NCBI GenBank assembly: GCA_044892525.1
Contig: CM097885.1
Coordinates: forward strand, 5,768,001 to 5,832,000
Direction: 5' to 3'
Length of the DNA stretch: 64,000 nt
From: Schmidtea polychroa
Lineage: Eukaryota
Every line of letters begins with the position of its first letter. The first letter of the stretch is position 1. Positions 20,601 through 26,600 of this stretch are shown one piece after another. Both the position numbers and the translations under genes were made by a program. The notes under the pieces are model-generated. The model did not search any database, was not told the origin of the DNA, and worked only from the letters and a program-made list of their open reading frames with translations.

Positions 20601-23600
20601 TCATTCAAAAGGTATTTGAGAGTAGAGTGTGATGGTCAAACCTTCAAAGATGTATGGTGAGTCCTTACCCTCAAGTGTCAAAAACTTTGATTTTTATTCA
20701 AACTGTAAATTGATCATTTCAACAAATCTTTCAATCCCCAAAATAAATTTCCCAACTCAAAAATTTCCCAAATTTTAAAAATTCCCAAAAACAATTTTCC
20801 CAACTCAAATTTTTTCAAAAATTAAAAAGTCCCAAAAATGAAATTCCCCAAATTTCCCAACTCAAAATTTTTCAAATTTTAAAAAGTTTTCAAAACTATT
20901 TTCCCAAATTTTCCAACTAAATAGTAAAAGAATATTTTACAATTTTTTTTTTCCTCGAATACATCAAACCAAAAATTTAACAAGGTTCGTCACACAAATC
21001 TAATTTTGAAATCAAACAAATGCATTTAATAAAAATTAAAATCATCGACATACACAACCGCCGCCCGCCCGCCGCCCGTCCGCCGCCCGCCCCGAAGGGG
21101 CTGGCGCGGTAGTTTGTAAATTTGGTTTAGTTTGAATATTATTATTTGATACATAGTTTTATTATTTACAATATTCAAAGTATTAATAACAAAGGTAAAG
21201 AAATAAATGTTTATAGTATGATACTCATTAATATACATTGAACATGCTTTACATTTGCGAACATTTTAAATTTGAATTTTAAGGATTACTTTCGATAGAT
21301 TATATTGAATAATGGTTCATTAAAAAGGTCTCATTTTTTTTTTTTTTTTTTTGGATTTTTGTGAAAAGTTGTAGGTTAGGCTGAAAATTAATTAGTAAAA
21401 AAATTGACACTTTTTGTGTTGTTGAAATAATTGAAATAAATATTTTAAAAAATGTAAAAACTGAAACGTTAAATATCATTGCAAGTTTGCTTGTCTTTTT
21501 ATTATATGTATCGTGTTGAAATATCTAATTTTCTTATAATCTATCTATCGATCATCTTGTTGCTTTTGAATAATAGTATAAACATAATTATTTTTTCATT
21601 TTAATTATTTTCAACCATGTCGGAAAAAGGTAAAATATGAATTTTATGTTTATTAATTCTTTTTTTTTTATTTAGCATATATAATCAATTTTTTGATTGA
21701 AAAATTAGAGGAAATATCTAATGTAAAAATTAGAGAATTTATGAATGTTCCAGAGAAATTAAAATGGCCGTATTCAGACGATGAAATTAATGAAGATGAT
21801 ATGTCATATGAATCTGAAAATATTTCCCAGCAAGAAGATGAATATACTGATTTGCCTAGTGAAGAACTTAAGTCATGTATTGAGAATTCTACAACAGATA
21901 AATTACCAAATGAATCTAAACAAGAAGATGAATCTATTGTTTTTACTAATTGTATTGATCATATTGTTGAAAATATAATGAAAAGAGATTGTATTGAAGA
22001 TTAATAAATTTAAAACTTTAGTTATTTTCAATGATTTAAAAACACCAAAACACTAATAAAGATGTATTAAATAAATTTAACATGAACAATGTTCCTCTTC
22101 AAACTTATCTTCGGCTTTTATAATTTTCCAAATTGGTTTGATTCGGTCTCTGCTTACATTATACCCTTGAATTAATATGGTAACCATACAGGTTATTTTG
22201 CTCATCTTACCACCATTGGGAATCATATCCAAATCGTTTCTAATGAACATATCTTCATCATCAAATTCAATATTTTCATTGATCCTCTGAAATAATTGTC
22301 CCAATAGCATCTTGTCGTGAAACTTGATTTTGGAAAGTCTCACATTGTAGAAACATTTTTCCAGAGTTACTGGTTCCTAACAATAAATAATAATAATAAT
22401 AAAATCCAAAATAATTTATAGAAACTTACCTTAAATGTATAGGAAATTGGACAATACAAATAATTTAGTTTGTATTGCATGAATTCGACTGGCTTTTTTG
22501 TATCCACTCGAACATTGACCAAGGTTTCCGTGGATAATGTCGCTTCTTTAAATTTCCTTTTTCCGAATTCCTGAGCGGCATCTGCATTTTTTCTCTTCAA
22601 AACTCCTAGATTAAAAAACTACTAAATGGAATATGTGTAAACGACAACAAACCTGTAATTTGATTATCCATTTGTAGTTATAATATTTAATAATTTGAAC
22701 CAGATATTTTATACTAATTTCATTGTAAACAAGTTTCAAGTGACAGGCATGATCAAAACGTGATCAACTAGTTCATTTTATGCTAAATAACAAAGTCTGA
22801 AATGATTTATTGTACACAAAGAAATATTATAGGTTAATTAAGGTTATCACAAAACAAATATAATTATATTTTATTACAACAATACATTTTTTCGCAATTC
22901 CACAAGTAATGCATGAATTATTTCTCGTTTCTGTAGATTTACAAAACATGTACAACTATCATCCCCACAAGTATTCTGCATATTATTTTTACAAAAATCA
23001 CAATTTTCAACATCATCGGTATAACATGTAATCGTAGCATGATCCATATGAATTAAATCTATTACATTTATTCCAGTTATTTCATAAATTTTGTAAAACA
23101 CAACTTCTGGAGCACAATACATTAAGGAATTGTTCAAATTCGGATAAAAATCTTCAATTTTATCAATCAAAATTTTTAGTATAGTTTCTAAACAAAAATC
23201 AGTAAATTTAAAATAAAAACAGTTACCTTCATGTTCAATCATTGTTGAATAAATATTCAAGCAAATCCTCGTTACTTATATTTGAAGAAATTGTTAAAGA
23301 TCCAATCAAATCCTTTACATCGTTTATAATTCCTTCAACAATAGTATGAAAATCTAAATTTTTAATACCTAGTACAACTATTTTACCACTCGAAAATATA
23401 TTAACACATAGTGGATTATATTTTGTATAACGCAGAGCGGGAAATAATTCAGGCTCATATATACAATCTCCATCTAATAACTTTGCTAAATTATTCAAAT
23501 TAATAGATTGTTCAACCTTGGTAGCTATAGTAAGACTTTGAACTTGAATATCTTTGATATTATATTGCAAATTCTCGAATTCGATAGGCTTCTTACAACC

Positions 23601-26600
23601 CATTATACGACATTTACCATTTTTGAAAAATATAATAGTATATTTTCCAGTTTTGTCAACATATTGTTGTGGTTTACACTTGGGGAAATTCATCATACCA
23701 ACAGTTTCCAAAGACACACGACCTCTATAATTAATATTTGTCAACATTTCTACTGAATATTTAAAAAATCAAGTATATATATATATATATATGTTATATT
23801 ATAGAGTAATTAAATCAATTTATTCTTTACGATATAAAATTAATTTTTAAATAAATATTAAAAATGGAACTAAGAAATGATGCTGTATATCAAATAGTCG
23901 GACCAAGTGGTAGCGGCAAAACTTTGTTTGTTTGCAAATTACTAAAATCACATTTATTTGAATCAAAATTTAACAAAATGTATTGGCATCGAGGTGCTGA
24001 TCAAGAACACGGATTGACTCAATCAAGTTTATGTAAATTGAAAAATATGAAAATAGTAGAGGGATTTGATAAAAATTGGTCTAGTAGACTAAAGAAGGGG
24101 GATGTCATAATTATTGATGACTTGTATCAAGAAGCTAATAAAGAAAAGAATTTCAATAATTTATTTACCAAAATCAGTAGACACGTTGGTGTAACTGTTA
24201 TTTTTATAACTCAAAATCTATTTCATCAAGGTGGTGCACATCGAACACGTAATTTAAATGTACAATATTTAGTTATTTTCAAGAATCCTAGAGATGCAAC
24301 AGTGATTGATTTTCTTGCACGTCAAGCATACCCTAACAATCGTAATTTTCTTATCAGTGCATTTCAAGATGCTACAAAAATACCTCATGGATATATATTT
24401 CTTGATTTCACACAACAATGTCCCGATGATTTACGAGTAAAAACAGATATTTTCAACCCAAAAGGTGCCATGGTTTATAAACAAAGTTGAAAACCTCTAT
24501 GAATAATAATGTTTCTAAAAGCAAGGGTGAAAAATATTAGGAAATTAAGAAAAAGTATTAAAAAGAGTATTAAAGTTCAAAAGGTTCCACCAACAACTAG
24601 TTATACACCATCTAAAAAACTTGTAACTGAAAATTTCTCTGCAATGAATCTTATTTCGAAAAATCCTAAACCTAAACGTGAAACCCGTAAAACCCGTAAA
24701 GCCGGTAAAAAAGTAATTAAAAATCATCGCAGTTTTCCATTTTTTAATGCATTGTTAAAGGCCCCGAGTATGAAAAGAATGAATATATTGCAATCATTCC
24801 CAAATTTTGTTGTCGATGATTTACTCAATATTATACTTAAAGTAGTCAAAGGCAAAATTAAAATCAGTAAATCAAAAAAGCATTTATTGAGCAAACATAG
24901 GAAACCTTTGTTATCATTAGTAAATAATAAAAATCGTAAGCAAATGAGGAAAATTATATATAAACAACAAGGTGGATTTATTGGTGCATTGATACCTCTG
25001 GCATTATCATTATTAGGTGGAGTTGTAGGAAATCAATCATAAACAATGGGTGTTAATCCTTCATTACCTAATTTAAATTTTAATTTTAAATCTTCTTGCT
25101 GTAATGGAGAAGATTTGGACGAACCCAGAAGACGAAGCCGGTTTCGGTGGAGTGGCAAAATTAAAGAAAAGAGTTCCGAATTCGAAAAAAGAAACCCAGA
25201 AGTGGTTATCAGATCAGCTTGCGTACAGTTTGAACAAACCAATGCGGAAAAGATTTCCAACAAGAGCCTATAAAACATTTGGTATTGACGATTTATGGCA
25301 AATGGATTTGATGGAGATGATACCGTATTCGAAAATTAACAATGGGAATAAATATATTTTAACATGTATTAATGTATACAGCAGGTTTGCACGAGCAATA
25401 CCAGTCAAGGCAAAATCTGCAGATGAAATGTCAAAGGCAATTAATATTTTATTTAAAGATGGACATCCTAATAACTTGCAAACAGATTTGGGTATTATTA
25501 TTATTATTGTTATTATTATTATTATTATTATTATTATTATTATTATTATTATTATTATTATTATTATTATTATTATTATTATTATTATTATTATTATTTT
25601 AGGTAAAGAATTCTATAATAGCAAAGTTAAGCAAGTCCTCGATAAACTGAAAATAAATCACTACTCGGTACATTCTCAATACAAAGCTGCCCATGTTGAA
25701 AGATTTAATCGAACATTGAGAGATAGATTAAAGAAATTGTTCGTGCATCAAGGTAATAAAAAATGGGTAAATACTTTACCGAAAATAATAACAAGTTATA
25801 ATCATTCATCACACCGAGGACTGAATGGATTAAGACCGGTTGATATTACATCAAAAACATTCTATTCTAAGAAATCTGTAAAAATTGCAAAACCTAAATA
25901 TAAAGTCGGTGATCATGTTAGAATTAGTAAAATTAGTGCATCACCATTTATTAAAAATTTTGATACAAATTGGAGTGATGAAGTCTTTGTAATTTCAAAA
26001 ATAAATACTAAACAGAATCCTGTAATGTATGTCATCAAAGACAGTGATAATAATATTGTACAAGGGAAATTTTATGAGCAGGAGTTACAAGTCATTCCTC
26101 CTCCAAAGGTATTTAGAATTCAAAAAATATTGAAAACTAAAAAGGTCGGCAAGGATAAACAATACTATGTCAAATGGCATGGTTATCAAAACCCGTTATG
26201 GATATCAGCAAAGTGAATTTTTATACTATTTTACCGAGCAATAGTTGCCCATTAATTCATCCAGACAATCAAGCCAGTAAATTTATGGTCAATCTCCAGA
26301 ATCCGATTTCTTTAAATGGTGACTGGGAAGTTGCACTGCAAGATTTTACATTCGTGTACAACACATTCCCATTTTATAGTCAATGTAAGATTGATTTCAA
26401 AAGGAATATTGTGAAAACATGTAGCGGTATCTTTATTATTAGTAATTATGATAAAACATATCATATTCCGAACCAAATATTAGATTCGCATTGCTATATA
26501 TTTTACAAGGATGGATTAAATATCAGTTGTGATTTTAAACCATTTACAATAACATTCGAAACTATTGAAGATGCCAAACGAATGGGTTGCAATAAGCTGA

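Follow-up and report, generated by a model that had tools for sequence, protein, structure and literature searches.

At positions 20109-36211 of a 64,000-nucleotide stretch of Schmidtea polychroa contig CM097885.1 (the window, in which all coordinates below are counted) lies a Polinton, or Maverick, that genuinely encodes a protein folded like TATA-binding protein (TBP). Purifying selection has kept the gene of this Polinton TBP conserved in related elements that form a wide clade, and these elements display two promoter classes: the word YATAAACA precedes most of their other genes, and a canonical TATA box is more frequent before the TBP gene. With a probability that we put at roughly 0.55, we take the protein to be a virus-type minimal TBP, a core gene of one broad Polinton clade, which as an early product would switch on the YATAAACA promoters. 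The gene and its divergent neighbour are the following.

23235..23747, minus strand: TBP-like gene, 170 amino acids (aa), predicted minimal TBP with a truncated first repeat (PF00352, AlphaFold2, Foldseek, hhalign)
23748..23863, no strand: divergent TBP-ATPase intergenic region, 116 nucleotides (nt), with a (TA)n run, presumed bidirectional promoter (from the sequence)
23864..24490, plus strand: packaging ATPase (A32/FtsK-like), 208 aa (Pox_A32, E 6.1e-7, 29.6 bits against a cut-off of 22.8)

The TBP gene is an uninterrupted open reading frame (ORF) beginning with ATG and devoid of internal stops. It sits inside an element bounded by terminal inverted repeats (TIRs), and its divergent neighbour at 23864-24490 is the A32-like ATPase gene. 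Its product matches the Pfam family PF00352 (TBP) over two stretches with an E-value of 3.5e-17, at 62.5 bits for a curated cut-off of 22.9, a match far beyond chance. The original prediction, made from the letters of the window, had described an intact 170-aa ORF with a TBP signature between TIRs, and the ORF, the PF00352 match and the TIR arms bear this out; the two peptides that it had quoted as TBP repeats are indeed read from the translation at aa 39-52 and aa 97-129, and it was correct in stating that the protein has no N-terminal extension. It had also proposed the search for a TBP fold as its own trial, and Pfam, as well as AlphaFold2 (AF2) followed by Foldseek, found one. The AF2 model, built from an alignment of 37 sequences (predicted local distance difference test 93.8, predicted template modelling score 0.80), displays the two-lobed saddle with its curved antiparallel sheet, and Foldseek retrieved with it 44 chains of the PDB at E <=1e-3, the top 43 of which are all TBPs; the TBP alignments span 167-178 columns, that is, the full protein length, with a template modelling (TM) score of 0.58-0.67 and an identity of 21-26%.

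The two halves of this saddle do not have the same status. TBPs consist of two quasi-symmetric repeats, each made of a strand, a helix, four strands and a second helix. In the model, repeat 2 has the full pattern, ending in a long helix (134-156), and repeat 1 has a strand, a short helix (13-17) and three strands, the last of which is not followed by a long helix. The alignment made by hhalign with six TBPs of canonical length, which places aa 33-152 on positions 53-183, likewise opens a gap at helix H2 of repeat 1, so that two complete quasi-symmetric repeats are seen neither in the model nor in this alignment. HMMER, run against solved TBPs, aligns only the second half of the protein (aa 63-147), and about 85 columns are alignable between the Polinton TBP and other TBPs. 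As modelled, then, the protein is a structurally minimal TBP with a canonical repeat 2 and a remodelled, shortened repeat 1. Compared with cellular TBP, it keeps the saddle along its full length and, in repeat 2, the YEPELFP stirrup, both phenylalanines and the SGK hairpin; it differs in being about 145-170 aa long across the family, for a cellular core of 180 aa, in the deletion of H2 and the shortening of H1 in repeat 1, and in several residues of its DNA-binding face.

These residues deserve a closer look. The positions that are invariant in the family are N6, Y7, F41, C46, R47, M49, G50, S71, E98 and E100, followed by F102, P103, R106, P112, C114, N116, F118, G121 and G127, and the DNA-facing strand residues form the most invariant part of it. 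In the HMMER and hhalign alignments F102 and F118 are both phenylalanines of repeat 2, and F41 is the second one of repeat 1, which accounts for three of the four positions that kink DNA; the fourth is not alignable, F21 being nearly invariant. In the stirrup, which in cellular TBP contacts TFIIB through E-P-E-L, E98, E100, F102 and P103 are invariant and P99 nearly so. Cellular TBP further makes central minor-groove contacts through asparagine and threonine in both repeats, and these were not retrieved as such: Ser71 stands for the asparagine of repeat 2, Leu126 for its threonine and Met49 for the threonine of repeat 1, the position of the repeat-1 asparagine being not alignable (N4 may retain it). 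Arg47, Arg106 and Asn116, all invariant across the family, take the place of hydrophobic residues of the sheet. The residue assignments proposed earlier from manual alignment thus hold for the stirrup, for both phenylalanines of repeat 2 (F102 and F118), for one of repeat 1 (F41, aligned with the second) and for the lost asparagine of repeat 2, now Ser71; as to the claim that a phenylalanine of repeat 1 was lost, the first of this repeat is not alignable and F21 is a candidate for it.

The gene has a large kindred. A search of 5.8 billion proteins gave 107 homologues at E <=1e-3 among 153 candidates, all with PF00352, mostly of 144-165 aa and all from metagenome or sequencing-run assemblies; the nearest is 94% identical, the others 33-63%. 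A profile of 37 homologues, run against 1.84 billion representatives, collected 60 sequences at E <=1e-30, 698 at <=1e-10 and 3443 at <=1e-3, the weaker tiers including cellular TBPs, and the nearest clusters of the ESM Atlas are short PF00352 proteins with taxon labels resting on one to nine members. At the level of DNA, a metagenome scan found at least 179 stretches that encode TBP relatives, the best 80 of which are the metagenome loci counted in what follows. Homologues of other genes of the window accompany the TBP gene there: the ATPase in 26 loci, the integrase in 16, a 351-aa protein in 14, the capsid protein in 10 and the protein-primed family B DNA polymerase (pPolB) in eight. Two of these contigs (L034 and L042) are near-complete elements with homologues of the same genes in similar order, and the ATPase gene lies downstream of the TBP gene, on the same strand, in 14 of the 18 loci that have at least 1500 nt downstream. 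Selection was estimated on full ORFs with both motifs, available from 41 of 83 loci: over 79 pairs with a synonymous divergence (dS) of 0.05-1.5, the ratio of non-synonymous to synonymous divergence (dN/dS) is 0.25 at the median and never exceeds 0.46. Relatives throughout the family, synteny and dN/dS together make the TBP gene a long-standing, selected component of a Polinton clade. Scans of IMG/VR with capsid and ATPase alignments found no relatives. One IMG/VR match to the TBP alignment, L031, was rejected as a family member, being a large virus with a canonical TBP; this 44.7-kb contig encodes a heliorhodopsin, a family B polymerase and both subunits of ribonucleotide reductase, and its canonical TBP, which has two repeats, scores 124 bits.

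Introns are absent from the ORF, as would be expected if a host TBP messenger had recently been copied into one element and left to drift, and the original prediction had itself named this as the outcome that would undo it. Everything else speaks to the contrary, and we regard such an origin as refuted. Alignment to the host TBP loci is limited to a motif region of about 35 residues (aa 97-132, E 2e-5 or weaker); relatives at 33-63% identity stand in syntenic Polinton contigs; the median dN/dS of 0.25 is not that of a neutral sequence; and the gene is not restricted to one copy, since in a six-frame search of the assembly (781 Mb, 1012 contigs) with the TBP protein at least 150 genomic places (of 4073 first-look candidates) match at 99-100% protein identity, 149 of the 150 without a stop, a figure which is a lower bound and not a copy number. 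Sequence comparison therefore argues that the Polinton TBP is not a recent host retrocopy. In 30 loci drawn from among the equal-best matches, with a 100% identical protein, the surrounding 3.5 kb are 91.8-100% identical to the window (median 99.4%), and 17 of them carry one to six silent differences in the ORF, a count which is no measure of selection because the loci were chosen for identity of the protein. The element is young and massively amplified. The same genome holds two older subfamilies (L122 and L123), with TBP genes of 156 and 154 aa, 54-57% identical, which are again divergent neighbours of the ATPase gene; their ATPase or integrase frames are interrupted and the TBP frame is open. 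The genome also has, beside the canonical TBP gene (L112) and the paralogues L113 and L114, several further TBP-type loci, which may be host genes or parts of other mobile elements; in three of them, L115 (C2:182.64 Mb), L117 (C2:132.29 Mb) and L118 (C1:195.75 Mb), both TBP repeats lie in a single open frame of 166-215 aa.

The promoter word came to light when CATAAAC or TATAAAC was seen to recur upstream of genes in related contigs, and it was then tested blind by 6-mer enrichment in the 100 nt that precede non-nested ORFs of 90 aa or more, 81 loci providing 365 such upstream windows. No 6-mer is more enriched than ATAAAC, present in 165 of the 365 for 25.9 expected, with the overlapping TATAAA and TAAACA next. 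Aligned instances begin with T or C (63% and 26%), continue with ATAAAC and end with A or G (73% and 17%), hence the consensus Y-ATAAAC-A/G. The box is sharply placed, ATAAAC starting 30-39 nt before the ATG in 65 of 182 instances and 40-49 nt before it in 29; it is present as a single copy in 149 of the 165 positive windows, and its reverse complement GTTTAT is found in 16 of the 365. By gene class, the upstream windows that contain the word are distributed as follows.

ATPase: 26 of 27
Capsid protein: 11 of 11
177-aa protein: 14 of 17
351-aa protein: 13 of 18
Integrase: 12 of 16
120-aa protein: 6 of 7
TBP gene: 6 of 63
pPolB: 1 of 7 (dereplicated, 0 of 4)
Unclassified ORFs: 74 of 196

The pPolB count is weak, because upstream exons are likely and the starts of this gene are uncertain. 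When each of the 37 TBP clusters (>=70% identity) is represented by a single locus, the word is found in 53 of 64 windows of the six motif-class genes, against four of 37 for TBP genes (Fisher p 8e-13). The TBP genes have another repertoire: the host-type consensus TATAWAWR is present in 24 of their 63 windows (15 of 96 for the motif class), TCAYT within 30 nt of the ATG in 25 of 63 (six of 96) and CCAAT or its complement ATTGG in 18 of 63 (14 of 96). As controls, the word is absent from the 15 windows of the unrelated large-virus contig L031, and within the 64-kb window it precedes one ORF of 17 outside the element and six of ten inside. Here the boxes start at 24476, 25038, 26154, 27121, 27166 and 27539, several of them within the preceding ORF, and a scan of the TBP-gene side of 23748..23863 found no ATAAAC. 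Such a partition suggests that the element runs a promoter code of its own on the host transcription machinery.

It is this dichotomy that gives a conserved minimal TBP a plausible job. An element that encodes no RNA polymerase would have to use RNA polymerase II (Pol II) of its host. The TBP gene would be transcribed from a host-type core promoter, with a canonical TATA box, often accompanied by a CCAAT box and by TCAYT, an initiator-like word. In cellular TBP, it is repeat 2 that covers the 5' half of the box, TATA, and repeat 1 that covers the 3' half; by analogy the canonical repeat 2 of the Polinton protein, with both intercalating phenylalanines and its YEPELFP stirrup, would sit on the TATA half of YATAAACA, and the remodelled, shortened repeat 1 would read the unusual AACA half. 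The complex would then recruit host TFIIB and Pol II to the promoters of the ATPase, capsid, integrase and other conserved genes. The upper surface of TBP, including H2 of repeat 1, is where regulators of cellular TBP operate, and loss of this helix may remove part of the surface through which host TBP is held in check. We infer that the protein would bind YATAAACA, that it would recruit TFIIB and that expression would proceed from early to late. The suggestion made at the outset, that a viral basal factor would direct Pol II to the element with altered promoter specificity, finds in the box and in DNA-facing residues that are changed and yet invariant a support which is circumstantial. In its most ambitious form, the proposal is that of a private two-tier programme, common to the whole clade and run on host Pol II, where a host-type promoter would yield the minimal viral TBP and this, in turn, would command the YATAAACA genes for packaging, capsid and integration; this we hold to be slightly less than an even bet.

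Several observations weigh against our interpretation. YATAAAC contains a canonical TATAAA core, so that host TBP might need no help to bind it. Of the four central polar contacts, three have given way to other residues (S71, L126, M49), and these losses recall TBP-related factors that do not bind TATA, so that classical DNA binding may be absent. The scans of IMG/VR found no related Polintons devoid of TBP, which leaves the co-occurrence of gene and motif without a control group. The upstream windows were set from ORF starts rather than from mapped transcription starts, and some genes have introns; 74 of the 196 unclassified ORFs carry the word, in a set that surely includes spurious ORFs. 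Finally, the ATPase gene of the window itself has no ATAAAC box (23800-23863), whereas its copies in L122-L125 have one 32-34 nt before the ATG.

In the principal rival account, the YATAAACA boxes would be ordinary TATA boxes used by host TBP, the viral protein being a decoy for TFIIB or other TBP partners, a competitor, or a regulator of few genes. As a decoy it would soak up these partners, resulting in host shut-off or in escape from repression. The TATAAA core within the box is in keeping with this account, as is a stirrup that is conserved while DNA-facing residues depart from the TATA-binding consensus; without H2 of repeat 1, moreover, the protein cannot copy every interaction of host TBP. 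Yet the DNA-facing strand residues are the most invariant of the family, which is unexpected for a pure protein decoy. The composition of the box argues likewise: between -50 and -25, TATAAAC is found in 70 windows, TATAAAT in 20, TATAAAA in nine and TATAAAG in one, a strong preference for C at position 7, where the host-type consensus TATAWAWR makes this base unusual, and it is the TBP gene that more often uses the canonical box (24 of 63 windows). We consider this account unlikely, if by no means negligible. That the same word could be the site of a host factor of the forkhead type, its link to the viral TBP being coincidental, comes to mind because ATAAACA fits the forkhead consensus, RYAAAYA. 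The optimal forkhead site GTAAACA is barely enriched, however (seven windows for 3.9 expected), and the reverse TGTTTAT not at all (10 for 15.3), when ATAAACA is enriched eightfold (124 for 15.3 expected); a box that is oriented with its gene, mostly single and most frequent 30-39 nt before the ATG behaves as a core-promoter element, and makes a forkhead site very improbable.

The protein could also act on DNA without acting on transcription, as an architectural factor that bends DNA, at the TIRs for instance, when the element is replicated, integrated or packaged. Proteins with the TBP fold bend AT-rich DNA, TA-rich runs are present at the TIR ends and in the TBP-ATPase spacer, and the TBP gene adjoins that of the packaging ATPase in most loci. 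This role would not account for the nearly verbatim conservation of the TFIIB-contact stirrup, for which no use other than transcription is evident, and a box positioned 5' of genes is better matched to a TBP-like factor; we find it quite unlikely. The interpretation that we retain, of a minimal TBP directing Pol II to YATAAACA promoters, has to be placed among the TBP-like factors already described.

Giant viruses (Nucleocytoviricota) have TBPs, which serve virus-encoded RNA polymerases in cytoplasmic factories. The Polinton protein shares with them a virus-encoded TBP fold, its best matches in BFVD (E 4e-8 to 1e-5) being first a putative TBP of Heterosigma akashiwo virus 01 and then proteins with names from Terrestrivirus, ChoanoV1 and Aureococcus anophagefferens virus; they differ from it in their greater length (the top ten measure 189-399 aa, with one exception of 547 aa), and their structural similarity to it is weaker than that of cellular TBPs. 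TRF2/TLP is, likewise, a TBP paralogue with a changed DNA-binding face, but it lacks the intercalating phenylalanines, at least three of which are kept in the Polinton TBP; a cluster labelled 'TATA box-binding protein-like 1' does appear in the ESM Atlas at rank 25 (score 0.93). Similar in logic would be the TBP mimic of beta- and gamma-herpesviruses (ORF24 of Kaposi's sarcoma-associated herpesvirus, BcRF1 of Epstein-Barr virus), which works with TATT late promoters (PMC12529657). The Polinton system would have in common with it a viral factor of TBP fold, a non-canonical TATA-like box, the control of one gene class and the use of host Pol II. Homology to the ORF24/BcRF1/UL87 family was not found, fold matches to BcRF1, U58 and ORF75 being weak (E 1e-3 to 1.4e-2); these proteins are 440-1005 aa long, whereas the Polinton protein has plain sequence homology to TBP.

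The claim that a TBP in a Polinton was new is weakened by a gene labelled 'TBP' on maps of midsize eukaryotic linear double-stranded DNA viruses in the adintovirus paper of Starrett et al. (2021; PMC8502044, Fig. 5 legend), and a further legend of its preprint bears on it too. To judge from the Fig. 5 legend, the label stands for a gene resembling TBP in viruses that are related to Polintons and have PolB genes of the adintovirus type; the legend gives the label alone, which does not tell the carrier virus or a relation to the present family, and the part of the paper that bears the label offers no structure, conservation or promoter analysis of that gene. The TBP genes of PMC10675990 belong, in the portion concerned, to mirusvirus-like elements and not to Polintons. 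A literature search pairing Polinton, adintovirus, Maverick or virophage with TBP, and covering main texts, left PMC8502044 as the one relevant item, and no paper combining the promoter word with Polinton terms was among the matches listed, which is no proof of absence. Virus-encoded TBP homologues and mimics are thus already known, and it is the YATAAACA promoter dichotomy that is newly noticed here.

We know of no account of how Polintons are switched on, or of whether their genes are expressed in a virus-like order. A promoter factor encoded by the element itself, together with a sharply positioned word, provides a concrete and testable model of this activation, which, if true, would explain how capsid genes can be expressed independently of host promoter rules. 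It would also make these elements the smallest known eukaryotic DNA virus or transposon with a basal promoter-recognition factor of its own, a simple analogue of the late-gene system of herpesviruses and, possibly, a beginning from which larger viruses of this lineage developed their transcription apparatus. The TBP gene and the YATAAACA boxes would form, in practice, a sequence signature with which to find and classify this Polinton clade, and a natural minimal TBP would show which parts of TBP are dispensable. With at least 150 near-identical TBP loci, the way in which the element is regulated bears on the evolution of the host genome as well.

The element itself is 16.1 kb long, with ends 5'-AGTAGT...ACTACT-3' and a 6-bp duplication, TCCGTA, on both flanks. 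Its TIR arms (about 0.9 kb) are 100% complementary over 832 nt and 99% over another 97 nt, and they extend 12 nt further outward; a 16-nt tandem duplication at 36184-36199 causes the repeat finder to stop 28 nt (right) and 12 nt (left) short of the termini. Long TIRs, a 6-bp target-site duplication and 5'-AG...CT-3' termini are the hallmarks of Polintons/Mavericks, and with these, a pPolB, a double-jelly-roll capsid protein and an A32-type ATPase, the element at 20109-36211 is a Polinton. Its remaining features are listed here.

20103..20108, no strand: left target-site duplication TCCGTA (identical 6 nt on both flanks)
20109..21039, no strand: left terminal inverted repeat, outer end 5'-AGTAGT (complementarity to the right arm)
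22874..23242, minus strand: 122-aa cysteine-rich ORF directly 3' of the TBP gene, whose stop it overlaps by 8 nt (ORF call)
24476..24483, plus strand: TATAAACA box, 32 nt 5' of the 177-aa ORF (sequence scan)
24509..25042, plus strand: 177-aa conserved ORF (homologues in 19 metagenome loci; no Pfam family)
25038..25045, plus strand: CATAAACA box, 65 nt 5' of the integrase gene, also preceding a small MG... ORF (sequence scan)
25104..26216, plus strand: integrase, rve core and chromodomain, 370 aa (rve E 1.8e-5, Chromo E 7.9e-4, both under the curated cut-offs)
26154..26161, plus strand: GATAAACA box, 19 nt 5' of the 351-aa ORF (sequence scan)
26174..27229, plus strand: 351-aa conserved ORF (homologues in 14 metagenome loci; no Pfam family)
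27222..27584, plus strand: 120-aa conserved ORF (homologues in seven metagenome loci)
27539..27546, plus strand: TATAAACA box, 41 nt 5' of the capsid gene, within the preceding ORF (sequence scan)
27581..28804, plus strand: double-jelly-roll major capsid protein, 407 aa (AF2, predicted local distance difference score 79.1, predicted template modelling score 0.81; Foldseek)
28880..29270, plus strand: adenain-like cysteine protease reading, over two frames (HW and CGQHC motifs seen by eye in three-frame translation)
31008..34274, plus strand: pPolB, 1088-aa ORF, 5' end uncertain (polymerase motifs)
34633..35190, plus strand: RING-finger protein, 185 aa (Pfam zf-C3HC4_3, E 9.4e-9)
35264..36211, no strand: right terminal inverted repeat, with the 16-nt tandem duplication at 36184-36199 (repeat comparison)
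36212..36217, no strand: right target-site duplication TCCGTA (identical 6 nt on both flanks)

The capsid model is matched by Foldseek to the capsid proteins of iridovirus, Paramecium bursaria chlorella virus 1 (PBCV-1), faustovirus and mavirus, at E 4e-17 to 1e-12. The integrase of the window scores 25.4 bits for rve, below the cut-off of 32.6; its homologue in L085, a related TBP-bearing contig, clears both cut-offs (rve 56.3 bits, Chromo 35.4 bits). The pPolB ORF of the window has no Pfam polymerase match at E <=0.01 and no sequence match in the PDB; the polymerases of L034, L042, L090 and L096 share 33-54% identity with it, and the L085 polymerase ORF, which matches PF03175 at E 4e-24, was grouped with it by profile search and not by pairwise identity. 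The 122-aa neighbour, considered as a partner of the TBP, was dropped: no Pfam family matches it at E <0.1, and homologues were found in sister copies only, none of the 80 metagenome loci having one. In the protease reading at 28880-29270, the passage from one frame to the other corresponds to a short intron or a frame change, with intron signals of the GTAAGT...TTCAG type nearby. A 75-aa ORF of the form MG..PS (25046-25273, plus strand), which begins 7 nt after the CATAAACA box and overlaps the start of the integrase gene, is also open in the sister copies L123-L125 and may represent either a small protein, perhaps N-myristoylated, or the real first exon of the integrase gene.

Contigs from four sequencing runs were compared with the window, one of them, X4, being of unknown kind and not on record as RNA. 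Contigs of X4 end in non-templated runs of A or T, with minus-strand ends at 22051 and 21660 (the former checked against the genome); these would be the poly(A) tail of a minus-strand transcript, 3' of the TBP and 122-aa genes. X4 also has one contig of low depth (3.3) over 23188-23343, and run contigs show a 4-nt difference in length near 23800-23863. Contigs of run X1 are present in all bins, that of the divergent promoter among them, and this run may therefore contain DNA.

As for the host partner of TBP, the core of TFIIB is interrupted by an intron in its first cyclin repeat (L131), and an unbroken TFIIB-like frame (L126) resembles Brf1. A weak match to the TFIIB cyclin repeat (E 1e-6 to 1.5e-8) is seen in at least 13 further open frames, 301-310 aa long, which form two clusters, at G000:C1:23.85-24.19 Mb and G000:C3:38.2-39.1 Mb; these frames may represent a host family that has expanded, or may belong to some other repeat. 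Outside the element, positions 16001-18000 and 46001-50000 of the window have a G+C content of 12-13%, for a usual 25-33%, and are probably AT-rich satellite or microsatellite DNA.

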